Shown: piece by piece, positions 1 to 52,212 of the stretch
Layout of the letters: every line of letters begins with the position of its first letter
Position numbering within the stretch: the first letter of the stretch is position 1
IMG/VR virus record: IMGVR_UViG_3300049830_000248
Location: 1 to 52,212 of that record
Length of the DNA stretch: 52,212 bases
Origin: a virus
Lineage: Duplodnaviria > Caudoviricetes
Reading direction: 5' to 3' (one strand)
Made by a program: the position numbers and the translations under genes
Notes under the pieces: generated by a model
Told to the model about the DNA's origin: nothing
The model's input: the letters and a program-made list of their open reading frames with translations, nothing else
Databases searched by the model: none

Positions 1-5
1 TGACG

Positions 6-176: not shown

Positions 177-220
177 CCGATGCCGTGGCCCGCCACTTTC
201 GCAGCAGCAAGTGGTTAGAG
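128..220 (-). other. attC site A1
   Basis: TGCTAAC(128-134)-5 nt-GCTCTGCGAAGTGGCGG ... CCGCCACTTTCGCAGCAGC-5 nt-GTTAGAG(214-220); two unpaired bases (T, C) in the right arm on the + strand. Confidence 0.85.
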
Positions 221-241
221 GCGAATAATCGTAATACAAAT

Positions 242-574: not shown

Positions 575-639
575 CCGCTACTCTACCAGCATCCGAATTG
601 CAGAGGCCCGCGCCGGTTCGCTCCAGTGATTTGTTAGCG
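529..639 (-). other. attC site A2
   Basis: CTCTAAC ... ACTGAGCGACCGGCGCG / CGCGCCGGTTCGCTCCAGT ... GTTAGCG; bulged T and C in the right arm. Confidence 0.85.
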
Positions 640-1380
640 CGTCCGGCCCGAATCGTTGCGCTGTCTGGCGGGAAGGACTCAACGGCGATGGCACTCGGAC
701 TCGCGGAGCGTGAACCAGACGAATACGAATACTGCATCACGCCGACCGGACGTGAACTGCCGGTGATGGTGGAACACTGGAAGCGCCTCGAATGTCTGCT
801 CGGCAAACCGCTCATCAAAGTGCCCGCGCCGACGCTGGTGGAACTCATCATCAAATACAAAACGCTCCCGAATCACCGGATGCGCTACTGCACGCGCCAA
901 GTGAAAATCGAGCCGTTCCAAATCTACGCGGCAGGCAAAGCTCCGGCGGTGTGCTATGTAGGAATCCGCGCCGACGAAGCGGACTCACGCGAAGGAACTG
1001 ACCACACGGGCATCGTCGGCGTGACGCAAGACTGCCCGCTCGTGCGATGGGGCTGGGACATAAACGACGTGAGGAACTACCTCCGCAAGCGCGGTGTGGA
1101 AGTGCCGGAGCGAACAGACTGTGACATGTGCTACCACCAGCAACTCGGCGAATGGTGGCGGCTGTGGCGCGACCACAAAGACCGCTGGCAGGAAATCGAG
1201 GCACTCGAAGCGTGGACAGGGCACACGCTGCGGAGCGAGCAACGCGACACCTGGCCGGCGAGCCTGAAAGAACTCGCCAAGAAATTTGAGGCTGGATACG
1301 TGCCGAAAGGAGCAGCGCAAACAAACCTCCGCCTCGACGTGTCCGAGCGGTCAACAATGTGCGCGTGGTGTGCTCGATGA
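571..1380 (+). CDS. Phosphoadenosine phosphosulfate (PAPS) reductase-family protein (cassette)
   Basis: PP-loop IVALSGGKDSTAM, RYCTRQVKIEP, VGIRADE, PLVRWGW, CDMC cysteine cluster. Confidence 0.85.
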   Translation: MTATLPASELQRPAPVRSSDLLARPARIVALSGGKDSTAMALGLAEREPDEYEYCITPTGRELPVMVEHWKRLECLLGKPLIKVPAPTLVELIIKYKTLPNHRMRYCTRQVKIEPFQIYAAGKAPAVCYVGIRADEADSREGTDHTGIVGVTQDCPLVRWGWDINDVRNYLRKRGVEVPERTDCDMCYHQQLGEWWRLWRDHKDRWQEIEALEAWTGHTLRSEQRDTWPASLKELAKKFEAGYVPKGAAQTNLRLDVSERSTMCAWCAR

Positions 1381-1402
1381 ACACGAGACGCAACATCCGG
1401 CG

Positions 1403-1525
1403 CGCTAACGCAAAGGCCAGCAACGGCGGGGGACAATGAACGATGAACGCAGAACCGATATTGGAATTGGAACAAGGTGACGAACGCACGGCGCACCCGC
1501 CGTTGGCTGCGCCGCTTGGTTCTGC
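1403..1525 (-). other. attC site A3
   Basis: CGCTAAC ... GGCCAGCAACGGCGGG / CCCGCCGTTGGCTGCGCC ... GTTCTGC; two bulges in the right arm. Confidence 0.85.
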
Positions 1526-1970
1526 ATCCCCGCGTGACAAGCACATCATGTCAGTAATGGGAAGCTCGAAAGACATGACGTGGCCGACACCGACGGAATG
1601 GTTCGACTACCTCGACCTCGAATTTGGCTTCACGCTCGATCCGTGCTGCGAACACGCGACGGCGAAATGCGCGAAGCACTACACGCCAGCCGAAGATGGA
1701 CTGGCGCAACCGTGGAAAGATGAACGTGTCTTTATGAATCCGCCGTATGGCCGCGAAATCGGCGCGTGGATGAAGAAGGCATACGAGGAAGCCCGCGACA
1801 ACGGCGCACTGGTGGTGTGCTTCGTGCCTGCTCGCGTGGATACAAACTGGTGGCATAGCTACGCTGCGAAAGCCACAGAAGTCCGCTATCCAAAAGGGCG
1901 CGTGAAAAACCCGGACGGCGTGGCATGGCCGTTCCCAATCGCGGTGATAATCTACCGCCCGCGACTGTGA
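1443..1970 (+). CDS. Phage DNA N6-adenine methyltransferase, Dam-like (cassette)
   Basis: WPTPTEWF...FTLDPCC, catalytic VFMNPPYG, VPARVDTNWW; cassette ends GTTCTGCATC/GATGCAGAAC are perfect complements. Confidence 0.9.
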   Translation: MNAEPILELEQGDERTAHPPLAAPLGSASPRDKHIMSVMGSSKDMTWPTPTEWFDYLDLEFGFTLDPCCEHATAKCAKHYTPAEDGLAQPWKDERVFMNPPYGREIGAWMKKAYEEARDNGALVVCFVPARVDTNWWHSYAAKATEVRYPKGRVKNPDGVAWPFPIAVIIYRPRL

Positions 1971-1971
1971 T

Positions 1972-2069
1972 GCAGAACGCTCGTGCTGACCTACCCCGCA
2001 TTGACGATGTGGCCCGCGAAAGCGGATGTGAGGGGAACAATAGGGGTTAGGTCCGGCACGTTGTTAGCA
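1972..2069 (-). other. attC site A4
   Basis: GCAGAAC ... TGCTGACCTACCCC / GGGGTTAGGTCCGGCA ... GTTAGCA; two extra bases in the right arm. Confidence 0.8.
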
Positions 2070-2083
2070 GGCGAATTTGAGAT

Positions 2084-2236
2084 ATGAAACAAAAACCGAA
2101 AAGCAAAAAGGCCGACTCTTTGAAGTGGGCAATCGGCCAGCTTGAAAAGATGGCGGCGGAAGAAACAGACCCAAAACTGAAAGCTCTCTGGCTGCGAAGT
2201 GCGGCTGCTGGCTACGAACGAAAGGCAAGGCAATGA
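2084..2236 (+). CDS. Small hypothetical protein (50 aa), first ORF of a two-gene cassette
   Basis: MKQKPKSKKADSLKWAIGQLEKMAAEE...; its TGA overlaps the next ATG (ATGA 2233-2236). Confidence 0.6.
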   Translation: MKQKPKSKKADSLKWAIGQLEKMAAEETDPKLKALWLRSAAAGYERKARQ

Positions 2237-2604
2237 CCGAAGAACTGAAATCAAACACTCCGAAAACGGACGCATACGACAAAGACAACTGGCGTGGCAA
2301 CTCCGCTGGCTGGCGCGAGCGATCAATCACCATCGAGGACGCTCTGGACTTCGCACGCAAGCAAGAATACTCGGCGGCGTGCGCCGAAAAGCTCCTGCTC
2401 GAAATCGGCCATGCGATAGCCGAACGGCTCGAAAAAATCCGCATAGACTCCGACAAAGAACCGCACCGCCGAAACGCAGAGTGCGACATCAAAACCGAAG
2501 ATATGCTGGATATGATAACGCGCAGCATCCACACCTATAAACTCACTCAATCCGACGACGTGGCCGAGCCTGCTAACGTGAAGTCCTGCGGTGGCGGGGA
2601 ATAA
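2233..2604 (+). CDS. Hypothetical cassette protein (123 aa)
   Basis: TPKTDA...DFARKQE phage-like motif; cassette ends GTTAGCAGGC/GCCTGCTAAC. Confidence 0.7.
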   Translation: MTEELKSNTPKTDAYDKDNWRGNSAGWRERSITIEDALDFARKQEYSAACAEKLLLEIGHAIAERLEKIRIDSDKEPHRRNAECDIKTEDMLDMITRSIHTYKLTQSDDVAEPANVKSCGGGE

Positions 2605-2691
2605 ATCTATGAGCGCAAAATCACCAGTTGAAATTGAGGCGAGCGGCGAGCGTAAAAAAATCACGCCATCCGCAGCGACGCTTGGTTCGGC
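2571..2691 (-). other. attC site A5
   Basis: TGCTAAC ... GTCCTGCGGTGGCG / CGCCATCCGCAGCGAC ... GTTCGGC; bulged T and C. Confidence 0.85.
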
Positions 2692-2700
2692 AGCTCCCAC
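2574..2700 (+). repeat. 127-bp exact repeat, internal copy (other copy 52086-52212)
   Basis: Direct comparison from TAACGTGAAGTCC to GCAGCTCCCAC. Confidence 0.95.
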
Positions 2701-2941
2701 GTTCTGCGCTGGCTGTGACTGGTGGAAACCGCGTAGAACGGCAGACGGCATGACCGGACTCGTCGGGTGGTGTGATGCCTTCAAGAAAACAACCAATGCG
2801 ACTCACGGTTCGCGCTGCACTGCGTGGACTCGCTGGCAAGAGCCGCCGAACGATGAAGCCAGCGAACCCGGAACTATGACTCACGACAACCCAAAACCCG
2901 AAGCGGCGAACCCAAGGCGTAATCCGGGTTCGCTGCGCTGA
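2609..2941 (+). CDS. Cys-rich hypothetical cassette protein (110 aa)
   Basis: Starts in the attC A5 loop; CAGC...WC...C pattern; ends inside attC A6. Confidence 0.65.
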   Translation: MSAKSPVEIEASGERKKITPSAATLGSAAPTFCAGCDWWKPRRTADGMTGLVGWCDAFKKTTNATHGSRCTAWTRWQEPPNDEASEPGTMTHDNPKPEAANPRRNPGSLR

Positions 2942-2951
2942 CTGGTTAAGC
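2845..2951 (-). other. attC site A6
   Basis: GCCGAAC ... AGCCAGCGAACCCGGA / TCCGGGTTCGCTGCGCT ... GTTAAGC; bulged C in the right arm. Confidence 0.85.
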
Positions 2952-2972
2952 ATCCCGAACAACAACACAAAT

Positions 2973-3155
2973 ATGAAACTGAAAAAAATAATGATACTGG
3001 AACTGACCGAACTCGAAACCGATGCAATCAAAACGCTCATCGGCAGAACGTCCGAGAAGGCGCGACTCGACCTCGGCCTGACTCTCGCTCAATCCAACAC
3101 TGTGTCTGACATCTACGACCACCTTCCGAATCTGGATGATGGCAAGGATGCTTAA
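2973..3155 (+). CDS. Hypothetical protein (60 aa), attI-proximal cassette
   Basis: Cassette ends GTTAAGCATCC(2945-2955)/GGATGCTTAAC(3146-3156), 11 bp perfect. Confidence 0.7.
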   Translation: MKLKKIMILELTELETDAIKTLIGRTSEKARLDLGLTLAQSNTVSDIYDHLPNLDDGKDA

Positions 3156-3182
3156 CAATCATTAACAAACTTCTGTTCGTAT
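3150..3182 (-). other. Putative attI site
   Basis: The last cassette end is followed by a non-hairpin A/T-rich 26 bp with TTAACAA repeated at 3152 and 3162, directly before the intI start. Confidence 0.6.
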
Positions 3183-4151
3183 ATGAGAATTGAAACCGCC
3201 TTGGAAACATTAAGGGATGTGATTCGCAGGAAACATTTCTCTTTGGCTACGGAACGGAGTTATCTCATGTGGGTGTCACGTTATGCGAGATTTGTTTCTG
3301 ACCTTGCCCGCAGGAATTGCCCGCAGGGATTGCCCGCCCAAAAGTTAGAGGCGTTTCTTACACAACTCGCCCGTCAGGACGTTTCAGCCTCAACTCAAAA
3401 TCAGGCGTTCAATGCGCTAATCTTTTTTTACCGCGAAGTCGTCAAGGTCGAGGTTGGAAACGTAAATGCGTTGCGCGCCAAGAAGCCTGTGCAATTGAGA
3501 TTCGCGCCCGAATTTTCAGAGGTAAAAAAACTGCTCGAATCAGTTCAGGACATTGGAGGCTATCCTACCCGCCTGATTGTGAAATTAATTTACGGTTGCG
3601 GCCTGCGCGTTTCCGAGCCGCTGAATCTTCGCGTGAAGGACGTTTTGCTGGAAGATTCCAAGCTGGTGATTTGCGGAGCGAAGGGCGGAAAAGATCGGTT
3701 TATTTCAATCCCCTGCTCGCTGGCTGGAGAACTGAAAACGCAACTGGCTTTTGCAAAATCGGTTCAGGCGCAAGACCGCACCAATTTGGTTCCAGTTGCT
3801 TTGCCTGGATTGCTGGCGAAGAAATACCCGCATTGGCAGTTCTCTCCGAAATGGGCGTTTTTGTTTCCTGCCCGGACGACTTGCCAACATCCGCGCGAAG
3901 GATTTAATGTCCGATGGCGTTGCCACGAGGCGAATGTTCAGCGGGCGGTTCGGGCAGCGGCGCGGCCTTTGGGTCTGGACATCACGCCGCACCACCTACG
4001 CCACGCCTACGCGACCCACTGTTTGAACAGTGGGCACAATCCGCGAGCGATTCAACAGGCGATGGGTCACAGCCAGCTAGAGACAACGATGGGCTACCTC
4101 CATGCCGAAGCCATGAGCGTTAAATCACCTTTGGAATTTCAAACTCACTAA
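3183..4151 (+). CDS. intI: Integron integrase (IntI-type tyrosine recombinase)
   Basis: IRRKHFSLATERSYLMWV, VSASTQNQAFNALIFFY, YGCGLRVSE, KGGKDR, IntI-specific insertion ALPGLLAKKYP...WAFLFP...HEANVQRAV, HHLRHAYATH, MGHSQLETTMGY; catalytic R-K-H-R-H-Y all present. Confidence 0.92.
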   Translation: MRIETALETLRDVIRRKHFSLATERSYLMWVSRYARFVSDLARRNCPQGLPAQKLEAFLTQLARQDVSASTQNQAFNALIFFYREVVKVEVGNVNALRAKKPVQLRFAPEFSEVKKLLESVQDIGGYPTRLIVKLIYGCGLRVSEPLNLRVKDVLLEDSKLVICGAKGGKDRFISIPCSLAGELKTQLAFAKSVQAQDRTNLVPVALPGLLAKKYPHWQFSPKWAFLFPARTTCQHPREGFNVRWRCHEANVQRAVRAAARPLGLDITPHHLRHAYATHCLNSGHNPRAIQQAMGHSQLETTMGYLHAEAMSVKSPLEFQTH

Positions 4152-4155
4152 AACC

Positions 4156-5241
4156 ATGTTCAAAAACGCAAAAATCTTCTCCATCGGCGCGAATCCAGAA
4201 GAATACCACAGCCAGCCAGCCGAGCGCGGTCAATCCAACTATGTGATGTCGTCATCCGCGCTGCGGATGTTCGCGCTCTGTCCGTCGAAGTGGCGGAATG
4301 GATGGGAGCTTCCGCGCTCCGCGTCCCTCGAATACGGGAGCTTGTTTGATACGCTCATGCTGACGCCGGAGCAGTTTGACACGCGTTACGCGTTGATTCC
4401 AGCCACTTACGATTCGGCGGCGATGAAGTGTCCGAAGTGCGGCTCGGTGTCCGAGGCTGCATCCTGCCGCGCCTGCAAGACCGAGCGCGAGCCGACGACG
4501 ATTCAAAAGCCGTGGAACGGTAATTCGGACACCTGCCGGGCGTGGCTGGACGCGCAGAAGGCCACTGGACGCGAGGTAGTGTCCGCTGACGCCCTGGGGG
4601 ACGCGCAGAGCGCGGCAAAGAGGCTTCTGGCCGACGACCAGCTTAAACGGTTCATCGAAGCCTGTGACAAGCAGGTTTGGCTGACTGCTGACTGGCACGA
4701 CGAAAACACCGGCATCATCGTGCCGGTCAAATGCCTTCTGGACTTGGCGGGAAAGGCAGACAGCGCGTTTGCGAAATCCCTTGGTGATCTGAAAACCACG
4801 AAGAACGCCGCTCCTTTGGCGTGGGCGAAGTGGGCGCATTACGCTGGTTACGAGATTCAGGCCGCTTGGAACACCGACATATTTGTAGCCGCATCGCAGC
4901 GCGAGATTACGAACTTTTGCTTTGTTCTGTCCGAAAGCGAATTCCCTTTTGAAACTGGCCGGCGCTTCATGTCACAAGACCTTCTTGAGCCGGGGATGGA
5001 CACGGGCGACATCGCATCGGGGCGGCGGCAATACCTTGGGATGCTCAAAGGGTATTGCAAATGTGTCAAAAACAACTTCTGGCCGGGATTTGACGACACT
5101 GACGAGGCGAGCGCGGACGGTTGGACGCTGGTTTTACCCGAACCTTACGCAGAACAACGCCGGATGTTCGCTCCGAAATTCAATTATGAGACGGGCGACA
5201 CGGAGGAGGCGGAAGAATCCGACCCAGATTTAATCCCTTAA
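4156..5241 (+). CDS. RecE/exonuclease VIII-like PD-(D/E)XK exonuclease with zinc-ribbon insert
   Basis: EEYH...SSSALR, GSLFDTLML, KCLLD, DLKTT, YEIQAA; CPKC...CRAC insert. Confidence 0.8.
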   Translation: MFKNAKIFSIGANPEEYHSQPAERGQSNYVMSSSALRMFALCPSKWRNGWELPRSASLEYGSLFDTLMLTPEQFDTRYALIPATYDSAAMKCPKCGSVSEAASCRACKTEREPTTIQKPWNGNSDTCRAWLDAQKATGREVVSADALGDAQSAAKRLLADDQLKRFIEACDKQVWLTADWHDENTGIIVPVKCLLDLAGKADSAFAKSLGDLKTTKNAAPLAWAKWAHYAGYEIQAAWNTDIFVAASQREITNFCFVLSESEFPFETGRRFMSQDLLEPGMDTGDIASGRRQYLGMLKGYCKCVKNNFWPGFDDTDEASADGWTLVLPEPYAEQRRMFAPKFNYETGDTEEAEESDPDLIP

Positions 5242-5400
5242 TTCCTGACCTGCCAGCCTGACCGTCTCGCGCATGGCCTCAAACCACTCTTTAGGCGTTC
5301 GGACGCGGGAAACGGGCGTTGGCGAGCGGCGCGGAGCCTTCTGACGCGGTTCGGGCTGGTCGTCATCCAGCCACCAGAACCGTTTATTTCCTGATTTCAT
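5230..5400 (-). CDS. Small hypothetical protein (56 aa)
   Basis: ATG at 5400, MKSGNKRFWWLDD...; last gene of a leftward operon. Confidence 0.5.
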   Translation of the reverse strand: MKSGNKRFWWLDDDQPEPRQKAPRRSPTPVSRVRTPKEWFEAMRETVRLAGQELRD

Positions 5401-5411
5401 AATTTTATGGG

Positions 5412-5651
5412 TTAAGGTTTGGGTAATAGGTAGATGGTCTTGCCACACTCGCAGGCCAACGGCTTTCCGAACGCCTGTTGCCAAAGAAGCGTCTGTTGGT
5501 ATGGCATCACCGAAACCTTCTGGCCGCTCCGGTCGTGGCCGGTGTATTTCGCGCACGAACCAGCGCACTCCACGCAGAGCAGCGCGCCGTTGTCGCCGGA
5601 GTAGATGACGCCTGCTTTCAACACTGGCGTCGTATGGTCGAGCGGTCTCAC
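5412..5651 (-). CDS. Zn-binding hypothetical protein (79 aa)
   Basis: CVEC...CECG; the GTG start overlaps the stop of a 31-aa ORF (5743-5648). Confidence 0.55.
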   Translation of the reverse strand: MRPLDHTTPVLKAGVIYSGDNGALLCVECAGSCAKYTGHDRSGQKVSVMPYQQTLLWQQAFGKPLACECGKTIYLLPKP

Positions 5652-5748
5652 GATTGCACCGCCTTTCCTTCGGTAAACATGACGGAATAATTGACCCATC
5701 CAAGCGCGCTTACGCCTTTGTATTGTCGAGTTTCAGTTTTCATTTTTG

Positions 5749-6048
5749 TTAGTCGTTGGAGTGCCGGTCGGCACGTTCAGTTTCTTCGATGCTGCTCGGC
5801 GACGGAGCGGAGATAGCTTCCGCGTTCTCCCTGCCCACAGTTTCCGATGGGCTAGTTCGCTGTTCCGCCGCCGAGAAGATTTTCGGAGTGTGATTTCGGA
5901 CATAGATGCCGAGCGCGTCAGGGTAGTAGCACCCGTCGCGGTCACACTTGTTGATTAGCTCTTTCATCAGGTCGGGCAGCCAGCAGGCCGGAGCTTCTAC
6001 GATCTGCCGCTGTAGTTCTTCGATTGTTATTTTCATATTTATTTTCAT
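5749..6048 (-). CDS. Hypothetical protein in an ectopic gene cassette
   Basis: Bounded by GTTGGAGTG(5755) and CACTCCAAC(6063-6071) plus an attC. Confidence 0.65.
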   Translation of the reverse strand: MKINMKITIEELQRQIVEAPACWLPDLMKELINKCDRDGCYYPDALGIYVRNHTPKIFSAAEQRTSPSETVGRENAEAISAPSPSSIEETERADRHSND

Positions 6049-6064
6049 ATTTATTTTCCGGTCA

Positions 6065-6158
6065 CTCCAACCAATCGCCGAAGCGAAAGTGGCGGGCGAT
6101 GGCCATTGGTTAATCCGAACGTCTCCCGTCCGCCACTTCGCTTGGCTCGGCGTTGATC
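6065..6158 (+). other. Orphan attC site homologous to A1, opposite orientation
   Basis: CTCCAAC ... GCCGAAGCGAAAGTGGCGG / CCGCCACTTCGCTTGGC ... GTTGATC; closely resembles the reverse complement of 128-220. Confidence 0.8.
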
Positions 6159-13133: not shown

Positions 13134-15890
13134 TCAATGCTTCAAAAGTCCCGCTTGAATGGCATCGTCCCATTCTTTCACTTCCTTGTCAAAATAATCC
13201 TCATCATCTGCATTGTTGGATTTCACGTCGCGTCCGATGCGTTCAATCTTGAATCCCATGCGCCTTGCGCCTTCGATTGCGATGGCAAACCAGTCGTAAA
13301 GGTCGGGGCTTTTCTTTACCCGCTCTTTCATGTCATCCTTCGATTCGACTTCAACCTTGTTGCCGGCAACAACTTTGAACAACCGCAACTGACCCTCCTG
13401 CGCGACATTGGCCGGCAGGTTTCGCACTTGGTTTGACTCAATCGCCTCACGGGTAGAGAACCACATTTCCGTGACGAACTTTGAATAATGCTCGTCACAC
13501 CGTTTCAGCCGTTTTTCACCCTCCTTTTCGTCAACAAACAAGTCGAACCGGACTGGCCGCGTTGTTGTCCTCGCACCGGAGTCAACCGGCTGCGGGCAGC
13601 TGGCTCCAAAAACCTTTGCAAAAGAGTTTCCAAGAGTCCCGCGCCCAAACGAGTCGTAAAAAATGTTTTCAGGCTTCAAGTCCAAGCGTTCGGACTGCTG
13701 CTTGATGAATTCTGCAATCTGATCCTCTGCATCCAGGCTGGAATTAAGCCGGATTGGAATTATCTCTGGTGTCCCAACGGAAAAAATCAAATTGCCGTCC
13801 TTGTCCTCGCCAAACTCGCACTCGCCACCAACGCAACGGTCGCCGCCACCGTATGCTGGATCAAGCGCATAAATTTTTGTTCGTGGAGTCCCTTTCCAAA
13901 TCGCGGATTTGAAAGCGCCATGCCGTTCACACAGTCCGATGGTGATGACGCGGTTTGAAACCATGCCGCGCGACGGCTTGCCGATGCCCTGCTGATAAAC
14001 CTGCCACGAGTCGGCCCCATAGGTGTCAATCAGCTTTTGAACGTAGCCGGAATTTGCCAAAAACGGGAAACTATCCTTCGGCTCGTCGTTGTTCGGCGTG
14101 TCGCGCCCGTCGTAGGCCACGCAAAAGGCGTTGAGCCAGCGCGAACGCCAAACTTGCGTCTTGCCGTTGTCAATGAAAGTGTCCCAACCTCCTGGCGGTT
14201 CGCTGGCGACACAAAGCGGGTCGGAAATGTCGGTCGGATTTCCGGCCATTACCCCTTTGAACCGCGAGTTTGCCATCCAGTTTGTGTAACCGTCCAACAG
14301 CGAAGGCTGCATCACCGCGCAGTTGTGGACTAAAAAACCATTTACGGAGTAGCTTGGATGTCCGGCAACCGCGAGATTATAGACCGAAGTTCTGCCTTCA
14401 CAATCTGCGGCGTCAGAATGACTCGCTTGTTCGCATATCTCAACACTGTCCACCCAAGCGAAGCTAGAAAATTCGTTTTCTTCGCGTCTTGCTCCTGCCG
14501 CGCAATCGTGTTGTGTGATGCTCCGTCTAATTCCACCGCCAGTTTCTTTTTCGGAAATGCAACATCCACTTTGTAGTGCGTCGGGTAGCCGCTCCCCGCT
14601 GGCATTTTCGTTTTGACTGGAAAATTGTTCTTGGCTCGCGGAGAGAATGTTTTGAGGAGAATCAATTCTGCCTTCGTCGGCCCTGTTCCATTTCCGCCGC
14701 GAATAGTAGGCTTGTGACCCGCCGCCTTCAACCGCCTGCTTATATTGCGATTGATTTCCAACTTCTGTTTGTCCGTCAGTGAAGCGCGGAAATCCTGAAA
14801 CCCTTGCTCCATCTTCTCCCGCATATCCGCATAACGCTCCGGCTGCTCCGCAAACAGCTTCTTGCGAGCTTTCTGAATCTTTTGGGAACGCTCCGGCGTG
14901 TAAAGTTTCTTGCGGTAGTCCGGTTGCGCTGCGAACCACTTCCCTTTGCAGGACAGCCCGCAGAACATCCGATTGGGCGGGATTAAAACCCCACAGCGGC
15001 GACATTTCTTTTCCTGACAAGATTTGATTTGCTTCATGCGCCGTTATCATAACACAACCCTGGTCAAGCTCAAACGCTTTTTTCCATCCGAATTGTGTCA
15101 GGACAGGATGCTCTGGTGTGCAGACGATTTCTTTTCCATTGCTGATTTTTATTCTGACAAGATTTCTGGCGGCGCGCTTCATAGTTGCAATTACCCTTGA
15201 CGCACCAACGGCAGAAAAAACCAAGTCGCCAGTTCGGATGGATTCAATCGGCCTTTTTCCGTGTGGCGTATCAACCAAAGTCCCCGCAGGGAAACACTCG
15301 TCTCCGTAGTGTTTAAGGATGCCATCATTTTTCCCCGGCGAACTTGGAGCCTTCACGCCCTGAAACTTCGACATCCCGACAAATCGCCCGCCGCTGACGC
15401 AGGGGACGCACACGATTCCTCGGTCTATCTGCCGCGCAAATTCACCATCCTCATCAATGTCATCGCTGACAATCGCCATCTTGGATTCAAGAATGTGGCC
15501 GGGCAACCACGGAAAGCGGGAGCGGCCACGGTTGAACAGCCATTTGATGCCTCGCCCCCAGATGCGGAGTTCGAGCGACCGGATGTCAGTCGAAGAAATC
15601 AAAGCCAGAGAAGTTTCGGGAAAACACCAGAAATCAATCAGCGCATGGCATGACATCAAATAAGTCTTTGAAGCGTTCGCGCAGCCAAGAATCACCGTCA
15701 CCTGATTTTCTACGATACCTGCCATGCCCAACTCAAACCAGCGGTGTTGCTTGTCCTCCGGCCAAAGCAGGGAGTGTGCTTTCAGGTAGTGCTGGACTGT
15801 GGACGGCTTGCCATAGTCGCGCCGAATCATGGCGAATTCAATTTCCAGCGGGTCAGCACCATCCGGCCAGTTCAGATTATATTTCTGCAC
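13134..15890 (-). CDS. terL: Terminase large subunit with intein (918 aa precursor, about 593 aa spliced)
   Basis: Walker A-like GCANASKT, Walker B HYGDE, MAGNP, nuclease ALDPAYGGGDR, C-terminal KSPDLYD. Confidence 0.88.
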   Translation of the reverse strand: MQKYNLNWPDGADPLEIEFAMIRRDYGKPSTVQHYLKAHSLLWPEDKQHRWFELGMAGIVENQVTVILGCANASKTYLMSCHALIDFWCFPETSLALISSTDIRSLELRIWGRGIKWLFNRGRSRFPWLPGHILESKMAIVSDDIDEDGEFARQIDRGIVCVPCVSGGRFVGMSKFQGVKAPSSPGKNDGILKHYGDECFPAGTLVDTPHGKRPIESIRTGDLVFSAVGASRVIATMKRAARNLVRIKISNGKEIVCTPEHPVLTQFGWKKAFELDQGCVMITAHEANQILSGKEMSPLWGFNPAQSDVLRAVLQREVVRSATGLPQETLHAGAFPKDSESSQEAVCGAAGALCGYAGEDGARVSGFPRFTDGQTEVGNQSQYKQAVEGGGSQAYYSRRKWNRADEGRIDSPQNILSASQEQFSSQNENASGERLPDALQSGCCISEKETGGGIRRSITQHDCAAGARREENEFSSFAWVDSVEICEQASHSDAADCEGRTSVYNLAVAGHPSYSVNGFLVHNCAVMQPSLLDGYTNWMANSRFKGVMAGNPTDISDPLCVASEPPGGWDTFIDNGKTQVWRSRWLNAFCVAYDGRDTPNNDEPKDSFPFLANSGYVQKLIDTYGADSWQVYQQGIGKPSRGMVSNRVITIGLCERHGAFKSAIWKGTPRTKIYALDPAYGGGDRCVGGECEFGEDKDGNLIFSVGTPEIIPIRLNSSLDAEDQIAEFIKQQSERLDLKPENIFYDSFGRGTLGNSFAKVFGASCPQPVDSGARTTTRPVRFDLFVDEKEGEKRLKRCDEHYSKFVTEMWFSTREAIESNQVRNLPANVAQEGQLRLFKVVAGNKVEVESKDDMKERVKKSPDLYDWFAIAIEGARRMGFKIERIGRDVKSNNADDEDYFDKEVKEWDDAIQAGLLKH
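14322..15296 (-). mobile_element. Intein (325 aa) inserted immediately after the Walker B DE
   Basis: N-terminal CFPAGTLVDT...IESIRTGDLV, block B CTPEHP, C-terminal VYNLAVAGHPSYSVNGFLVHN followed by Cys +1. Confidence 0.93.
14342..15037 (-). CDS. DUF559/Vsr-like endonuclease nested in the +1 frame of the intein
   Basis: CRRCG...FCGLSC zinc finger, PTKAE, YKVDVAFPKKKLAVELDGASH...QDAKKTNFLASLGWTVLR. Confidence 0.85.
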   Translation of the reverse strand: MKQIKSCQEKKCRRCGVLIPPNRMFCGLSCKGKWFAAQPDYRKKLYTPERSQKIQKARKKLFAEQPERYADMREKMEQGFQDFRASLTDKQKLEINRNISRRLKAAGHKPTIRGGNGTGPTKAELILLKTFSPRAKNNFPVKTKMPAGSGYPTHYKVDVAFPKKKLAVELDGASHNTIARQEQDAKKTNFLASLGWTVLRYANKRVILTPQIVKAELRSIISRLPDIQATP

Positions 15891-46401: not shown

Positions 46402-46802
46402 AAGCATTAAACCAGTATGAAAAGAGAAATCGCATTTTTAGCAGCCGTGCGGCTACCATTTTATTTCTTCTCGTGGCCATCATCGTCGCGCTTCCGCTTA
46501 CCTGCCCAGCGCAGGAAGCCAACTCCATTGCCGCCGCAGGCGCAACCCACATCCCGCCAAACGTGAAGGCCGACCTTGTGAAGCTATTCAGCGACATCCT
46601 CGACTCGGTGAGTTTTACCGGCCTTGGCAGCGCGGGCTTCCTCGCATGGGTGTCCGCTCGCTTCCTGCGAAAAGGCATCCCCGACAATTTACAGAACGGG
46701 ATTCTCGGCGCGGTCTTGAAACACGCTGCGCTTGAAATCAATCCGCAGACCAAACCACAAACACCGGACGCTCCGGCACAGACAACCAAAACAACCACAT
46801 GA
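46398..46802 (+). CDS. Membrane protein (two hydrophobic segments)
   Basis: ILFLLVAIIVALPL and GLGSAGFLAWV. Confidence 0.6.
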   Translation: MKALNQYEKRNRIFSSRAATILFLLVAIIVALPLTCPAQEANSIAAAGATHIPPNVKADLVKLFSDILDSVSFTGLGSAGFLAWVSARFLRKGIPDNLQNGILGAVLKHAALEINPQTKPQTPDAPAQTTKTTT

Positions 46803-47359
46803 AAAAAACCATCGCAATCCTCACCCTCGCCATGCTCGCCGTCGCAGGCTTCGCGCAATCCAATCCAAGCGCGTCGTTCACCGGCGCAGTTCAACAGTTC
46901 AGCGAAGCCGTTACCAGCGCGACCAACTGGACGGCCATCGCCGGCTATGGCCGCTCGACGGCTGGAAACAAGAATGTCGCGTTTGCAGACGTGGCCTACA
47001 ACTTCAACCAGAACGTCGGCATCGTCATCGGTTACGACTATCTCTGGGCGAAGGGTCAATCGCAGGCCAACGTCGTCAAAGGCGGCGTCACTCTGTCCGC
47101 AACCGTCCATCCGTTCGCGTTCCTCGGCTCAACATTCGCCACGAACATCGTCGCCACACCGTTCGTCGCCGACCTGCTGGCCACGCCGAAAAACAATTCT
47201 GGCATCGGCAACATCATCACCACCGGCATCAACTTCGATGTCTATTCTTTCAAGAACTTTGAACTCGGCGCAGGCGTCCAAATGGAACGCCGCTACGGTC
47301 AAGGCTATTGGAACGGGAATTACTGGCTCGGACATATCGGTGTCACCCGTAAGTTCTGA
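46799..47359 (+). CDS. Secreted outer-membrane beta-barrel-like protein
   Basis: Signal peptide MKKTIAILTLAMLAVAGFA, alternating amphipathic strands, C-terminal YWLGHIGVTRKF. Confidence 0.65.
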   Translation: MKKTIAILTLAMLAVAGFAQSNPSASFTGAVQQFSEAVTSATNWTAIAGYGRSTAGNKNVAFADVAYNFNQNVGIVIGYDYLWAKGQSQANVVKGGVTLSATVHPFAFLGSTFATNIVATPFVADLLATPKNNSGIGNIITTGINFDVYSFKNFELGAGVQMERRYGQGYWNGNYWLGHIGVTRKF

Positions 47360-47412
47360 ACCAAAAATGCCCGTCACCGCGAAATAGAGAGCGCGGCGAC
47401 GGGCAATCTCTA

Positions 47413-47823
47413 ATGAATCCTCCGTTACAATACGAGCGCGGCTACAAGTATCAGGTTTACGCCGACTACGGCATCCAGACCGCCATTAAGGGTTACGACG
47501 TTCACGAGGATTTCTTCTCACTCGACAAGAGCGGCTGGATAATCGTCAAGCGCGGTTACGCATGGGACGGCGCGAGCGGGCCGACGATTGACACAAAGAG
47601 CAGCATGGTCAGTTCGCTGGTGCATGACGTGTTCTACCAGTTGCTCCGCGAAGGACACCTGCCGCACGACCCTTGTTTCCATATCGCCAACGAAGAGTTG
47701 CGCCGACTGTGCGAGAATGACGGAATGTGGCGATGGCGGGCGACGATGTGGTTCGACTTCGTTGAACAGTTCGGCACGGCGTTCGCCGCCGTCCAGCCGG
47801 ACAAGGTATTCACCGCGCCCTGA
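47413..47823 (+). CDS. DUF1353-like protein
   Basis: GYAWDGASGP...SLVHDVFYQL...AN. Confidence 0.75.
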   Translation: MNPPLQYERGYKYQVYADYGIQTAIKGYDVHEDFFSLDKSGWIIVKRGYAWDGASGPTIDTKSSMVSSLVHDVFYQLLREGHLPHDPCFHIANEELRRLCENDGMWRWRATMWFDFVEQFGTAFAAVQPDKVFTAP

Positions 47824-47857
47824 AAGCGGAGTGAATCACTCTCGCTAGAGCACTTTT

Positions 47858-48010
47858 TTACATCCAAACGCACGATAACTGGTATCGCGGTGACATCGAG
47901 GAATCGTTTGACAACGGCCTGACGTGGCACCGGATTGCATCCACATCTTTTTCGGTTGCCGATGCCGCGAAGTAGTCGCGGAGAGACATTCCCGGCGCTG
48001 TTGTCGTCAT
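47858..48010 (-). CDS. Small phage protein with GMSLRDYFAA motif
   Basis: Common phage motif; coupled to the VRR-NUC gene. Confidence 0.55.
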   Translation of the reverse strand: MTTTAPGMSLRDYFAASATEKDVDAIRCHVRPLSNDSSMSPRYQLSCVWM

Positions 48011-48354
48011 TTGATTACCTCGAAAAAGTCTTTCATTGATCTTACAACTTCGTAACGGTAGCCAGACAATTCTGCGGCCAACTTGAAACCGGCCTGCTCC
48101 GGCGTCAGTTTGCCGAGCCGTGTTTTGCACTCGATAAATAGAGCCTTCGCGTTTGGCGGATAGATTTGGAAATCGGGAACGCCCTTCGCCGTCGTCGCAG
48201 CCTTGTCCATCCTGGAATGGATGTAAAGCCAGCGACGGCGTTTCAATTCAGCTTCGATGTCGTCGTGCAGCGGGCGTTCGCGTTCGACCGGCGATTCGGA
48301 GGGGGCGGCTCTGCGGCTTCGCATCATTTCGTATTCGGCGGTTGTGATTGGCAT
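48007..48354 (-). CDS. VRR-NUC domain nuclease
   Basis: GVPDF...LFIECKTRLGKLTPEQ..F. Confidence 0.85.
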   Translation of the reverse strand: MPITTAEYEMMRSRRAAPSESPVERERPLHDDIEAELKRRRWLYIHSRMDKAATTAKGVPDFQIYPPNAKALFIECKTRLGKLTPEQAGFKLAAELSGYRYEVVRSMKDFFEVIK

Positions 48355-48360
48355 GACGGC

Positions 48361-48438
48361 ATCCTAGCCTTTGGCTTTTCTGGGCGCAAGAAAAAAAACA
48401 ACTTTTTTGTTGACGCACCGCTTTGGCTCTGGCATAGT
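48361..48438. promoter_or_regulatory. Divergent sigma70-like promoters
   Basis: Rightward TTGACG-17-CATAGT (48410-48438); leftward TTGCGC-17-TAGGAT (48389-48361). Confidence 0.6.
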
Positions 48439-48444
48439 CGCGTT

Positions 48445-48621
48445 GTGAAGAATAATCCACTAAAAGAAAAGATCAGGTTGCTGCGCGTGAAGGGTGTTCC
48501 GGTGATTGTAAAGACCCACCTTGACCGGCTCAACTGCCACAACTACGCGCGCCAGTTCAACGTCGAAATCAAAACCATCCGGCGACTGTCGGGCGGCATT
48601 GAAATCCACCGTGTTAAATGA
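48445..48621 (+). CDS. Small basic protein (58 aa), first gene of the early operon
   Basis: GTG 6 nt after the -10 box; overlaps the next start. Confidence 0.5.
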   Translation: MKNNPLKEKIRLLRVKGVPVIVKTHLDRLNCHNYARQFNVEIKTIRRLSGGIEIHRVK

Positions 48622-48878
48622 GCGACCATCTTCAACAATCGTTCGACCGAGCGCAAAGGCAATACGACGCGCAGATGCCAGACGAGCCGCGCATGAAGGA
48701 GTGTCCGAACTGCGAAGGCGCGGGAACGGTGGAGATTGAGGCGCATGACGGTGTGCGCGAAATGCCGTGCCGAGTTTGCGACGGAGACGGTGAAGTCGAG
48801 CAGACCGCAGACGACGCCATTGACCGCGAGGCTGACGCCGCAGATCACCTAAACCAAATCGAAAAGGACGGACAATGA
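48618..48878 (+). CDS. DnaJ-type zinc-finger small protein
   Basis: CPNCEGAG and CRVCDGDG. Confidence 0.7.
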   Translation: MSDHLQQSFDRAQRQYDAQMPDEPRMKECPNCEGAGTVEIEAHDGVREMPCRVCDGDGEVEQTADDAIDREADAADHLNQIEKDGQ

Positions 48879-49027
48879 AAACTGATTTCCCATTCCACCA
48901 CTCATACATCGAAAACGAAATGGCCGTGCGCCGCGCCGTCGCCAAGAAAAAACTCGCCATCATCGGGCTGTGTGTGGCGTCCACCGGCATTGGATTCGTC
49001 TTGGGAGTCGTTTTTGCTTGGGTATAA
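48875..49027 (+). CDS. Small membrane protein (50 aa)
   Basis: ATGA overlap; LAIIGLCVASTGIGFVLGVVFAWV tail. Confidence 0.55.
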   Translation: MKTDFPFHHSYIENEMAVRRAVAKKKLAIIGLCVASTGIGFVLGVVFAWV

Positions 49028-49085
49028 CGCTCCTCGAAAAACCTATGAATACCGCACGTTCTGAAACCTCACAAGAAACCAGTCA

Positions 49086-49958
49086 ATGCGTATGAACAAA
49101 CCAGCCGAACAACCATCCCTCGAAATCGCCCACCTTGAAACCGGCGCGCTGGAAAAACAATCCGCGCAAACCGAAACTGAACGGATGTTCGCCATGATTG
49201 AGCGCATGGCAACCGACCCGCAGGTTGACCCGGCAAAACTCCGAGAGATTCTGTCCGTCAAACAGGCATGGGAAGCCGACGAGTCCCGAAAGGCTTTTGC
49301 CTCGGCGATGGCAAAGTTTCAATCGCTCTGCCCAATCATTGAAAAGCTGGATACGGCGAACGGGCGCGGTTACGCGCGTCTTGATCGGATTCACCGCGAG
49401 ACTCGTCCGCTTTTGCGCGATTGCGGGCTTTGGTTTTCTTGGACGGTTTGCGAGGAACGCGATGGCGGCTTGATTCACCTTGAAGGCATCTTGGGTCATT
49501 CCAGCGGGCATCAAGTCCCATGCCGCCAGTTGATTTCACTCCCCGACAAGATTTCCGGCACGAACGCCGCGCAACGTGCCGGAAGCGGACAGACATACGC
49601 GAAGCGTTACGGGGAGCTTGCAGCATTGAATGTCGTCACAGGCGATGACAACGACGGCAATTCGCGCAAGGAGCGTCCGGTAGGGCCGGCAGCGCGTCCG
49701 GCGGCTAACCCGTCCGCGCCCTCTGCGCCACAAAAAGAAACTTTTGAAGAATTGAAGAAAAAGCTGTCGAAAGAGCTTTGGGACTTACTCAAGCCGACCG
49801 TCAGCCAAGTCGCCGGCTGGAATCCAAAAACGTGGGACGGCCACAATCAGTGGCTATTCCGCGAGGACATCTTGGACGGCGGAATTCCAGAAGTCATGCC
49901 CGATCTGAAACCGGAGCGGATTGCGGCGGTTATCGGGCTGGTGAAGGAGCGGATTTAA
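49086..49958 (+). CDS. ERF-family single-strand annealing protein
   Basis: AMAKFQ, YARLD, HSSG, QRAGSGQTYAKRY...LNV..GDDNDGN. Confidence 0.85.
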   Translation: MRMNKPAEQPSLEIAHLETGALEKQSAQTETERMFAMIERMATDPQVDPAKLREILSVKQAWEADESRKAFASAMAKFQSLCPIIEKLDTANGRGYARLDRIHRETRPLLRDCGLWFSWTVCEERDGGLIHLEGILGHSSGHQVPCRQLISLPDKISGTNAAQRAGSGQTYAKRYGELAALNVVTGDDNDGNSRKERPVGPAARPAANPSAPSAPQKETFEELKKKLSKELWDLLKPTVSQVAGWNPKTWDGHNQWLFREDILDGGIPEVMPDLKPERIAAVIGLVKERI

Positions 49959-50036
49959 CGACCCAAGCTGACGACGTGAATTGAAACCTGCGGCTCAATC
50001 GGCCCACTCCGATTGTATTGTTAGCGAGCAACGACT

Positions 50037-50372
50037 ATGAAAAAGACCATAAAAAAAGAAGTTCGGTTCTGCGACAAATGCGGAAAGGAATACTCATATC
50101 CAGACGCCTGCATGAAGTGCGGGACGGAAATGTGCTACGAGTGCAAACAGAAACACGGGAAGTCCTACAACCACGCCATCTACCTTCAAGGCAGTGGAGA
50201 CGGCTTCTACTGCAATCCGTGCGATGCGAAACTGACCGCCGCCGGAACTGACAAACGCCACAACGCCTACCGCGCCATCAAATCCCTGAAAGATGAACTG
50301 GAAGCGTGGCACACCGACTTCAAAAAACGCCAAGAGGCAGCCGAGAACGCGGTGAAGGCTCTTGCTCGCTAA
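50037..50372 (+). CDS. Zn-binding hypothetical cassette protein (111 aa)
   Basis: Four CxxC pairs; ends GTTAGCGAGCAA(50020)/TTGCTCGCTAAC(50373). Confidence 0.75.
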   Translation: MKKTIKKEVRFCDKCGKEYSYPDACMKCGTEMCYECKQKHGKSYNHAIYLQGSGDGFYCNPCDAKLTAAGTDKRHNAYRAIKSLKDELEAWHTDFKKRQEAAENAVKALAR

Positions 50373-50470
50373 CGCAGACTTGAGTGGCGCGAAATAAAAT
50401 CTATGACAACCCCTGACGTTTCCGAAAAACTGAATGCGCTAATCGCGTCCACTCCAAGGACGGGTTCGGC
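50367..50470 (-). other. attC site B1
   Basis: CGCTAAC ... CTTGAGTGGCGCGA / TCGCGTCCACTCCAAG ... GTTCGGC; bulged T and C. Confidence 0.85.
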
Positions 50471-50645
50471 ATCACCAGAGCGCCTCCAACATCTGGGCAC
50501 AGTCCTGCGAATCAGGCTCAATCGCATCGCTGAAACCAGCGACACAAATAAAATCTGGCTCGAAGCCCGCGAATCTCTTGAAGTCTTGCGCCAACTCGAA
50601 GCTGTGATGCCGAACGCTCCGCATGAGCGAACCCCGGACAAGTGA
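50403..50645 (+). CDS. Hypothetical cassette protein (80 aa)
   Basis: Starts in the B1 loop; ends GTTCGGCATCAC/GTGATGCCGAAC, 12 bp perfect. Confidence 0.65.
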   Translation: MTTPDVSEKLNALIASTPRTGSASPERLQHLGTVLRIRLNRIAETSDTNKIWLEARESLEVLRQLEAVMPNAPHERTPDK

Positions 50646-50650
50646 CGTAT
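50609..50650 (-). other. Truncated attC B2 (left arm only)
   Basis: GCCGAAC plus an arm-like GCATGAGCGAACCCCGG with no complementary arm or GTTGGGC downstream. Confidence 0.55.
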
Positions 50651-50673
50651 GAAAACCAAAAACTCTCTCGCAA

Positions 50674-50898
50674 ATGCCACCTACACCGATGAACGAACCT
50701 ATCTGCATAAAATGCAAAACACCAATGTCGCCAGTCCCGAAGCAAACGGGCATCTTGGCAAACGCGACATTCACAGTCACGGGCTTCCGGTGCGAAAACT
50801 GCGGTCACTGGAATAATCTCAAACGCAGAAAACAGAAGCAGCCCAACACCAAGCTCACAGATGCCGGGACTGTGAGCGTGAAATTGGATGAGACGTAA
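50674..50898 (+). CDS. Zinc-ribbon cassette protein
   Basis: CIKC...FRCENCG; stop lies in the B3 loop. Confidence 0.65.
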   Translation: MPPTPMNEPICIKCKTPMSPVPKQTGILANATFTVTGFRCENCGHWNNLKRRKQKQPNTKLTDAGTVSVKLDET

Positions 50899-50929
50899 TC
50901 CCGGCATTCTGTGCAGCTTTTCGTTAGCG
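50841..50929 (-). other. attC site B3
   Basis: GCCCAAC ... GCTCACAGATGCCGGGA / TCCCGGCATTCTGTGCAGC ... GTTAGCG. Confidence 0.85.
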
Positions 50930-50959
50930 TGTCGCGCCAAAGAATCTCGAAAAAAAATG

Positions 50960-50993
50960 TTGCGTAGCATGGTAGAAAGATGTAGCATGGTAG
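50960..50993 (+). promoter_or_regulatory. Cassette-internal promoter overlapped by 12-bp direct repeats
   Basis: TTGCGT-17-TAGCAT with TG extension; GTAGCATGGTAG at 50964 and 50982. Confidence 0.55.
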
Positions 50994-50997
50994 GACT

Positions 50998-51285
50998 ATG
51001 ACAAAATTCTGTTACAAGAAACTATCGGAAAACGAACTGCACGAAATGGCGTTACTGCTATCTCGTGCGATTCACAACGAACAGGTCGGCATCGAAACTG
51101 AAAGCCCGGACGGTAAAAATCCCGGCTTCATCACGAAACAGCTATTCGGTGTGTGTGACGGCATGGAAGATACTACCATCCTCATCCAGCCCGAAGGCTT
51201 GAAGTGGCTGTGGGTGCGATATATGGGTGCGAAAGGCGGAAAAGCCAAGGCCGCGAAAACAAAGAAGCGTGACCGCGCACGCTAA
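50998..51285 (+). CDS. Hypothetical cassette protein with basic KGG-like tail (95 aa)
   Basis: MGAKGGKAKAAKTKKR; its stop is the TAA of the TAAC box. Confidence 0.7.
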   Translation: MTKFCYKKLSENELHEMALLLSRAIHNEQVGIETESPDGKNPGFITKQLFGVCDGMEDTTILIQPEGLKWLWVRYMGAKGGKAKAAKTKKRDRAR

Positions 51286-51380
51286 CGACAAGCTCACGCC
51301 ATGACTACCGCGCCAACAGCGTCCGCCTCGCCGAAAACCGTCAACGCGGTAGTCATTGAGCGTGCAGCGACTGGTTCGCC
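51280..51380 (-). other. attC site B4
   Basis: CGCTAAC ... GCTCACGCCATGACTACCGCG / CGCGGTAGTCATTGAGCGTGCAGC ... GTTCGCC. Confidence 0.85.
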
Positions 51381-51711
51381 ATTTCGGGTGCGACTCTCTC
51401 GCAAGCGCGGATGGAGGATGCCGGAAAATACTGTGGTCGTGTCGAAGCCGAGCGTGTGGGGAAATCCATTCTGGAAAGGTTTCGGCTGCCGGATGAGCGC
51501 GGCCTGGAGCTATCGCGTCCACCTGCAAGTGGCGCTCGTGCAAATACGCCTCGGCCTGCCATGCGATGAACCACACTTCGAGCGCATCGCAAAACGGCTG
51601 CCCGAACTGCGCGGGAAGAATCTCGCCTGCTGGTGTCCACTCGATATGCCGGACTGCTACTGCCACGCGGGCGTGCTGCTAGAAATGGCGAACGAAAAGC
51701 TGACCGCATGA
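51301..51711 (+). CDS. DUF4326-family protein (cassette)
   Basis: SRKRGWRMPENTVVVSKPSVWGNPF ... LRGKNLACWC...CHAGVLLEMAN. Confidence 0.85.
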   Translation: MTTAPTASASPKTVNAVVIERAATGSPFRVRLSRKRGWRMPENTVVVSKPSVWGNPFWKGFGCRMSAAWSYRVHLQVALVQIRLGLPCDEPHFERIAKRLPELRGKNLACWCPLDMPDCYCHAGVLLEMANEKLTA

Positions 51712-51786
51712 CTACCGCGCCAACAACGCCTCGCCTCGCCGAAAACCGTGAACGCGGTAGTCATTGCGTGCAGTGCTGGGTTATGC
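51687..51786 (-). other. attC site B5
   Basis: GGCGAAC ... CGCATGACTACCGCG / CGCGGTAGTCATTGCG ... GTTATGC; near copy of B4. Confidence 0.8.
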
Positions 51787-51806
51787 CACGTTAACGAAAA
51801 ATCAAT

Positions 51807-52088
51807 ATGAAAACCGGAGAAAAAGTAGTCTGCGTAAAAGGCTGGTCAATGCCGTAAGCCAACGATGCAAGTCACAAGCCAATCGTCGGAAATGTGTATG
51901 TGGTAGCCGGTGTCCATGAGTGCTACGAGACGATGGGAGGTCTGCATCTGCTCGGAATAGAAGTGCCGCACCACTGCTGCCGATGCGGTGGCGCTGCGGC
52001 GTGGAGATCCTACCACTTCCGAAAGCTGGATGAAATGAAACTCGAAGCAAAACAAAACCAACAACAGCCACAGACGCAAGTGGCATAA
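51807..52088 (+). pseudogene. Cassette gene with in-frame TAA at 51855-51857
   Basis: MKTGEKVVCVKGWSMP*ANDASHKPIVGNVYVV... continues in frame to 52088; ends GTTATGCCAC/GTGGCATAAC. Confidence 0.65.
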
Positions 52089-52203
52089 CGTGAAGTCCTG
52101 CGGTGGCGGGGAATAAATCTATGAGCGCAAAATCACCAGTTGAAATTGAGGCGAGCGGCGAGCGTAAAAAAATCACGCCATCCGCAGCGACGCTTGGTTC
52201 GGC
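52083..52203 (-). other. attC site B6 (second copy of A5 with a different neighbour)
   Basis: Identical to A5 from TAAC onward; the left flank is GTGGCA instead of GCCTGC. Confidence 0.85.
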
Positions 52204-52212
52204 AGCTCCCAC
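52086..52212 (+). repeat. 127-bp exact repeat, terminal copy
   Basis: Identical to 2574-2700. Confidence 0.95.

Follow-up and report, generated by a model that had tools for sequence, protein, structure and literature searches.

A forked contig end at an attC-type site in the integron-like cassette array of an environmental phage

Cassette arrays and terminal repeat of the window

The window, by which we mean the whole stretch of 52,212 nt analysed here, is an IMG/VR virus record that is classed as linear, is estimated by CheckV to be 96% complete and contains no N. Small cassette genes precede an integrase gene on the same strand and are separated by attC-type hairpins; further cassettes of this kind occupy the right end of the window. 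The main features, with the cassettes named K, A and T, are as follows.

1–2573, + strand: the stick, with cassettes K1, K2, K3, K4 and K5 (Pfam and PHROG matches, brackets, attC scan)
up to 133, + strand: K1, partial
134–534, + strand: K2
535–1408, + strand: K3, PAPS-reductase-like (Pfam/PHROG)
1409–1977, + strand: K4, Dam methylase (Pfam/PHROG)
1978–2576, + strand: K5, first left neighbour of A5 (R-box pair 2063–2072/2568–2577)
2574–2700, + strand: internal copy of the 127-mer, preceded by K5; unitigs of two public runs, X1 and X2, fork here
2575–2687, + strand (= bottom strand): attC of A5 (DNA fold; strict scan, 14/14 pairs)
2577–2850, + strand: A5 (R-box pair GTTCGGCAGC, 2685–2694, and GCCGCCGAAC, 2842–2851, with 1 mismatch, by eye)
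2851–3155, + strand: K7, adjoining the integrase (R-box pair 2945–2955/3146–3156; ORF 2973–3155)
3153–3182, + strand: attI-like site, comprising the last AAC and a further 26 nt as far as the integrase ATG
3183–4151, + strand: IntI-type tyrosine recombinase of 322 aa (TIGR02249 and 2a3v)
4156–5241: exonuclease VIII-like protein
49086–49958: Erf-type annealing protein
49987–52088, + strand: tail array in the circle, with T1, T2, T3a, T3b, T4 and T5
49987–50372, + strand: T1
50373–50614, + strand: T2
50615–50846, + strand: T3a
50847–51285, + strand: T3b
51286–51692, + strand: T4, DUF4326
51693–52088, + strand: T5, second left neighbour of A5 (R-box pair 51780–51789/52080–52089; ORF stop TAA at 52086–52088)
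52086–52212, + strand: terminal copy of the 127-mer, the A5 attC plus 13 nt, preceded by T5 (identity to 2574–2700)

K5 has two ORFs (2084–2236 and 2233–2604), the second of which crosses the TAAC and stops inside the 127-mer; the ORF of A5 (2609–2941) has its Cys-rich core within the cassette. The frame of T5 that begins with the ATG at 51807 meets an in-frame TAA at 51855–51857 and reopens at 51894, and is either a decayed cassette gene or one whose true start lies later.

It is chiefly IMG/VR and CheckV that identify the window as a phage. Its products include a primosomal protein and a DnaB-type helicase (PHROG/Pfam); for 20 large ORFs, these two collections gave only the DnaB, primosomal, weak terminase and tail matches and an intein, most of the large ORFs having no match in either. 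One ORF of 918 aa (13134–15890, − strand) combines Hint/intein domains (residues 199–523) with a weak match to the terminase large subunit (residues 661–888) and is probably an intein-bearing terminase. When compared with GenBank phages by DNA, positions 1–6000 gave one 276-nt methylase match and positions 46500–52212 gave none; with this lone match, an annotated relative is therefore absent. An Rfam scan and a tRNA scan gave no matches.

The last 127 nt of the window (52086–52212) equal 2574–2700 exactly, as a previous reading made from the sequence only had stated, and this is the sole long exact repeat found by self-BLAST; the runner-up pairs 51281–51367 with 51688–51773 over 88 nt at 87.5%. 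A chance origin of an exact 127-mer is impossible. The identity has zero leftward extension, the two copies being preceded by GTGGCA and GCCTGC, respectively, so that its start at the TAAC of the attC left box, also noted in that reading, is confirmed. Each flank moreover matches the other end of its own cassette, as claimed: GTTATGCCAC (51780–51789) is the perfect reverse complement of GTGGCATAAC (52080–52089), and GTTAGCAGGC (2063–2072) that of GCCTGCTAAC (2568–2577). Since the strict scan places a site at 2575–2687, the 127-mer consists of the entire A5 attC and 13 nt; the terminal copy is matched by the same scan at 52087–52199, with 14/14 pairs and bulges C and T.

The value 127 is a common largest k-mer of assemblers, and k up to 127 is used by JGI metaSPAdes. 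Because the repeat has this length and its terminal copy ends at the final base of the record, it points to a graph junction at the contig end. The last bases repeat 2574–2700 and not the first k bases, so the window is neither a circular contig with a terminal k-mer overlap nor a phage genome with direct terminal repeats (DTR); sequence comparison and self-BLAST found no second copy of bases 1–127 in the window. For the same reason the contig is a stick-and-loop walk, in which a 2,573-bp alternative branch (the stick, 1–2573) enters a 49,512-bp circle (the loop, 2574–52085). The possibility that the head is a diverged copy of the tail was ruled out by self-BLAST (zero similarity). An exact 50-mer of the repeat had 0 matches in viral_contigs and 0 in metagenome_contigs, searches from which the window's own records may be left out.

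attC-type sites, integrase and gene orientation

The cassette brackets are perfect inverted repeats of 9–12 nt, of the form GTTn...n'AAC, around small genes. Seven GTTA..TAAC brackets of at least 9 nt are present in the whole window, all within 214–3156 or 50020–52089, compared with a mean of 0.85 (maximum 5) in 200 local shuffles. Brackets with any GTT..AAC core number 24 (5.0 in shuffles, maximum 11) and include 1519/1978, 50464/50615 and 51374/51693. The bracket 616/1115, which interleaves with 633/1409 inside one PAPS-reductase gene, was treated as chance. The gap from the AAC of one bracket to the GTT of the next is 32–110 nt. The word CTAACG is not enriched overall (7 matches window-wide, 12.8 expected), all seven copies lying within the array, and AATAAAATCTATG is not significant as a motif in the window.

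Ten inter-cassette stretches were folded as + strand DNA. In most of them, an AAC/GTT stem is followed by some 5 unpaired nt of spacer, a stem of 12–17 bp whose 3' arm has single bases bulged out at one or two places, and a variable loop; for 1401–1528 the MFE fold deviates, and the centroid and the strict scan show the hairpin. The attC of A5 is composed, in order, of AAC, a 5-nt spacer, a 3-bp stem, a bulged C, a 6-bp stem, a bulged T, an inner stem, the loop (which contains the ATG at 2609) and GTT. Sites with C and T bulges and 13–14 of 14 pairs are found by the strict scan on the + strand at 132–216, 533–635, 1407–1521, 2575–2687, 50371–50466, 50845–50925 and 52087–52199; one site with G and T bulges lies at 1976–2065 (+).

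These features were compared across the window and 55 viral loci from IMG/VR whose integrases are related to that of the window, with identities of up to 76%. The 116 sites examined (108 unique) have 196 bulges on the 3' arm (T 88, C 73) and 43 on the 5' arm. A fixed-register pairing test proved too rigid (30/108 sites) and a best-register test was used instead: arms of the same site pair at 11.79 of 14 positions, against 8.29 (maximum 8.66) with arms shuffled among sites, and at least 12 of 14 pairs are formed by 63 of 106 sites, against a shuffle mean of 2.1 (maximum 7). At least four standard pair types occur at each of the 14 stem positions. Among the 63 well-formed sites, 50 have C as the outer bulge and 60 have T as the inner bulge; the two bulges occupy positions 16 and 23 (7-nt R box counted) with a 6-bp stem between them.

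[quoted passage not shown] Judged from sequence, the geometry of the window family matches this description, with an AAC/GTT R box, a spacer of 5–6 nt, bulges 6 bp apart and lengths within the published range, the outer bulge excepted. Because of the bulges at 16 and 23 and the 6-bp stem between them, the + strand is the attC bottom strand and exchange is predicted at the left AA/C. The identity of the two 127-mer copies starts at TAAC, where such cleavage is expected.

Sharing of attC sites extends further than that of genes or integrases. Nucleotide matches between the window and the viral loci are confined to them; the site at 51281–51367, which is 87.5% like its neighbour at 51688–51773, is 95.9% identical over 97 nt to 3470–3566 of locus L049, with unrelated flanks and an integrase only 37% identical. 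Among the 55 loci, recurrence is limited to the integrase and a few cassettes (Dam, PAPS, DUF4326), so gene order could not settle which junction is the 'normal' one. At 50613–50640, AACGCTCCGCATGAGCGA matches the 5' arm common to sites in L006, L015 and L024; in sequence this looks like a truncated attC, because the matching 3' arm is absent before the ORF 50674–50898. A single attC-type site is found on the opposite strand at 6069–6154 (−; 14/14 pairs, bulges C and T) and is 74% like the K2 attC (132–248). It lies beside the bracket 5755/6071, which surrounds a minus-strand ORF (5749–6048), and 5755–6154 (−) has the appearance of one cassette in reverse, some 1.9 kb beyond intI.

The integrase scores 256.2 bits against TIGR02249 (NCBIfam integron-integrase) over model positions 2–313 of 315, the curated cut-off of 265 being 9 bits higher. 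Among solved structures, V. cholerae IntI4 is the best relative (2a3v, E 8e-44). The two align without a gap across LPGLLAKKYPHWQFSPKWAFLFPA and the corresponding IntI4 stretch, which we take to be the IntI-specific additional stretch, the IntI hallmark; the match to the XerC-like 4a8e splits into two pieces. The nearest chromosomal or MAG relatives of the integrase (51–59% identity; L059–L071) are nearly all from Verrucomicrobiota MAGs, in which the arrays have ordinary gene orientation, and this hints at Verrucomicrobiota as the host phylum. Arrays are present in 36 of the 55 viral loci. In 21 of the 24 viral loci examined for it, the last of a run of non-overlapping brackets ends 27–62 nt ahead of the integrase start (27 nt in the window). 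The stretch of 27–30 nt to the right of the last AAC is conserved among relatives, and the sequence to its left is not; such a step has the expected look of an attI-like boundary.

The sequence-only reading had spoken of reversed polarity. This is correct for the genes relative to attC and incorrect for the array, whose placement with respect to intI is canonical, the attC bottom strand being the intI coding strand. PAPS_reduct (K3), Dam (K4) and DUF4326 (T4) all lie on the + (bottom) strand within their own brackets, and the canonical layout, with genes on the top strand, attC downstream and expression from Pc, is not found. Of 169 chained brackets in the viral loci, 100 have their longer open frame on the integrase strand and 25 on the opposite strand, and 44 are tied. 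As a control, bacterial genome loci were fetched with the same integrase; there the longer frame is + in 12 and − in 35 in total (3 and 16 for Verrucomicrobiota-type near relatives, 9 and 19 for distant relatives), the control being small because chains were found in only 3/13 and 8/67 bacterial loci. With the integrase on +, bulges on the 3' and 5' arms number 185 and 42 in the viral loci, and 29 and 9, and 13 and 0, in the two bacterial groups.

On the + strand, a cassette has the form C + attC + GTTn...gene...n'AA. Several cassette ORFs start inside the attC hairpin (2609, 51301, 1443 and 50403), which encodes their N-terminal 20–30 residues. The TAA of the TAAC core is often the stop codon; GAAC-ended cassettes read on into the next attC until a stop.

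Cassette junctions in public assemblies

Positions 1–6000 of the window are present in four public freshwater runs from three studies, X1 to X4, of which X3 and X4 are one sample; the runs hold 0.99, 0.79, 0.62 and 0.45 of the sampled words, respectively. X1 is not independent, since it may be the source sample of the window. The runs are contigs (k=31), not reads, in which molecule counts, circles and long-range phasing are invisible; they were aligned at 90% likeness, and joints found in this way may stem from other organisms.

As previously proposed, the left neighbour of A5 varies: it is K5 or T5 in both X1 and X2, and X3 has a third cassette in that place. K5–A5 unitigs extend over 506–2603 in X1 and 2307–2603 in X2, and their 30 letters beyond the junction, one under the 31-letter bridging rule, are what a unitig stopping at a fork would show. 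Ahead of 2574, X1 has loose ends of 255 letters and X2 of 74, and the 30 letters displayed are identical to window 52056–52085 (the T5–A5 order); in X3 a different 90-letter end is found at 2574. Contigs assembled independently of the window, in X1 (possibly its source) and in X2, thus stop or fork at 2574, in agreement with the proposal that the window ends at a graph junction.

Other junctions vary as well. In X1, A5 is a separate graph node (unitig 2574–2852) with two right neighbours, K7 and another behind 2863, and unitig ends at 535, 2603 and 2852 are at cores or one k−1 overlap past them. Loose ends behind 135 in X1, X2 and X3 represent another right neighbour of K1. In X4, record 25 joins 2995–3152 to 131–412 (158 and 282 letters, 4 shared = TAAC), giving K7 then K2, and record 30 contains the whole of A5 followed by 148 letters unlike K7. 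The two attI-like joints are weaker: X1 connects 531 to 3153 (K2 next to attI) with a shorter side of 26 letters, and X2 record 13 has 11 letters, equal to 2838–2848, ahead of 3154 (A5 next to attI). Contigs in all four runs also match only 3381–3416 of intI, 35 nt, and diverge on both sides of it, so many related integrases co-occur in these freshwater samples.

The forks are at 135, 535, 2574, 2852 and 3153, each at an xAAC core. Together with the start of the 127-mer identity at TAAC, they bear out the crossover at the left AAC suggested earlier; the joints share only TAAC or AAC, a resolution of 3–4 nt, and are as expected for exchange at 5'-AA/C-3' with the bulges opposite the triplet. 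In three contexts each, the attC of A5 remains attached to the A5 body and that of K2 to K2, which directly supports a unit with attC on its left.

We therefore favour, with a probability of about 0.8, the reading that the window is one linear walk through the forked assembly graph of a phage population, with the fork at the phage-integron attC of A5. The loop would be a 49,512-bp circular or circularly permuted phage genome and the stick an alternative cassette set entering it at the same node. This node would be the attC of A5 in a phage-borne integron made up of the IntI-type recombinase (3183–4151), the attI-like site 27 nt before its start codon and the upstream array. Cleavage of the IntI type, between A and C of 5'-AAC, would leave each attC attached to the gene that follows it on the right; all sequence to the left of TAAC (2574) would thus be exchangeable, and the divergence of the two 127-mer copies left of TAAC fits that boundary. 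Directly observed are the repeat, the architecture of the sites together with its conservation and covariation in relatives, and the alternative core junctions in four runs; alternative neighbours of A5 are present in at least two independent studies. Among the weak points are the integrase score, 9 bits under the cut-off, and the outer bulged base, C where canonical sites have G.

The junctions would have been made by the phage's own integrase. Genomes with different cassettes were said to coexist: the alternative junctions are there, and we infer that they belong to separate genomes, short contigs being compatible with a duplicated A5 as well. Similarly, what was called active shuffling stands as variation among co-occurring molecules, and exchange may still be going on; identity breakpoints date no event, because they mark only the end of homology.

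The most serious alternative, although an unlikely one, is a single genome of fixed order that carries A5 twice, after T5 and after K5, both junctions being in one molecule and the assembler having broken at the repeat. Duplicated cassettes are common in chromosomal integrons, A5 has its two right neighbours in X1, and a CheckV estimate of 96% for a 52-kb record leaves room for a few kb more. The X1 word depth of the A5 unitig (279.6) exceeds that of K3–K5 (175) and of K7 (112), but these values are not a clean 2:1:1 and contig depths are poor measures; they suggest that the stick is more than a rare variant. K1 and K2, with two neighbours each, would call for several duplications, and a single fixed order cannot yield the third neighbour in X3, the A5–attI record in X2 and the K7–K2 order in X4 across samples.

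Less probable still is a second alternative, in which two distinct related phages share A5, K7 and intI by descent or homologous exchange and the fork marks old mosaic boundaries instead of integrase activity here. Identity breakpoints as such reveal only where homology ends, one X1 contig over the intI start differs from the window at 3187 and 3189, and the other intI relatives in all four runs (loose ends at 3381 and 3416) imply that several lineages co-occur. Joints that share only a 3–4 nt core (K7–K2 and, more weakly, K2–attI and A5–attI) are nevertheless impossible by homologous recombination, and every boundary coincides with the cleavage triplet of a structured site beside a matching recombinase. 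This alternative departs from the population walk in timing, not in mechanism. A pure assembly artefact (a chimeric join or a mis-trimmed terminal overlap, with no biological variation) can practically be dismissed: the repeat has the standard largest k-mer length and IMG/VR classes the record as linear, but an ordinary circular overlap would match 1–127 and not 2574–2700, and both left neighbours of A5 are present in independent k=31 assemblies of a different study (X2).

Beyond the walk through a forked population graph, we lean slightly towards a broader interpretation: an environmental phage lineage, probably infecting Verrucomicrobiota, would own a working integron rebuilt for phage use, and its population would swap early or accessory genes via IntI at AA/C. 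An attC in front of the gene on the recombined strand would permit early transcription through the whole array towards intI. The swapped cargo would comprise methylases, PAPS-reductase-like proteins, DUF4326 and small zinc-ribbon proteins, possibly serving counter-defence. If this is true, the forked contig end is a snapshot of natural cassette exchange.

Comparison with known integrons and circular contigs

Integrons are known as bacterial gene-capture platforms (IntI, attI, attC), for example V. cholerae's chromosomal integron (VchIntIA, PDB 2a3v). The phage array resembles them in its IntI-type recombinase with the putative IntI-specific stretch, in its position upstream of intI, where the intI coding strand is the attC bottom strand, in the AAC/GTT R box, the 5–6 nt spacer and the two bulges 6 bp apart opposite AAC, and in exchange at AA/C and very diverse cassette content. 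It differs in the position of the cassette genes on the bottom strand (viral loci, 100 + and 25 −; bacterial loci, 12 + and 35 −), as a consequence of which attC precedes the gene and often supplies its start codon, and transcription is towards intI. It also differs in the outer bulge (C, not G), in a predicted crossover only 27 nt from the intI start and in its phage carrier. Such natural sites of inverted polarity offer material for probing the coupling of strand choice and expression.

The phage cases in print are captured fragments and integrase-less attC clusters. Qi et al. 2023 (PMC9892861) report a screen of 10,705 phage genomes that yielded 3 complete integrons and 1 In0, of which those covered in the main-text parts are described as captured host or class 1 pieces, and 17 further cases that were integrase-less CALINs. 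Integron parts on phages and DNA methyltransferase cassettes are common to those cases and ours; unlike them, the integrase lineage described here is carried by 55 IMG/VR contigs, with arrays in 36. Neither bottom-strand genes nor population-level junction variants are mentioned in those main-text parts, and the supplements might list such cases. A full-text literature search likewise found no paper on a phage-native integron lineage with bottom-strand genes or junction polymorphism, although supplements might contain examples. What is new here is the population-level evidence for alternative cassette orders at the cleavage triplet. A phage-native integron with cassette polymorphism in natural samples and breakpoints on the predicted triplet is the in situ signature expected of a working system, and would explain how small early phage genes are turned over as modules.

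The window also resembles circular contigs with a terminal k-mer overlap, and phage direct terminal repeats, in its exact end repeat of k-mer length and in a walk closed on itself. In contrast to both, its end corresponds to an internal position, 2,573 nt in from the start, and end-repeat tests call it linear. Stick-and-loop contigs therefore conceal complete circular genomes from such tests, and at mobile sites a published contig is only one among several coexisting orders.
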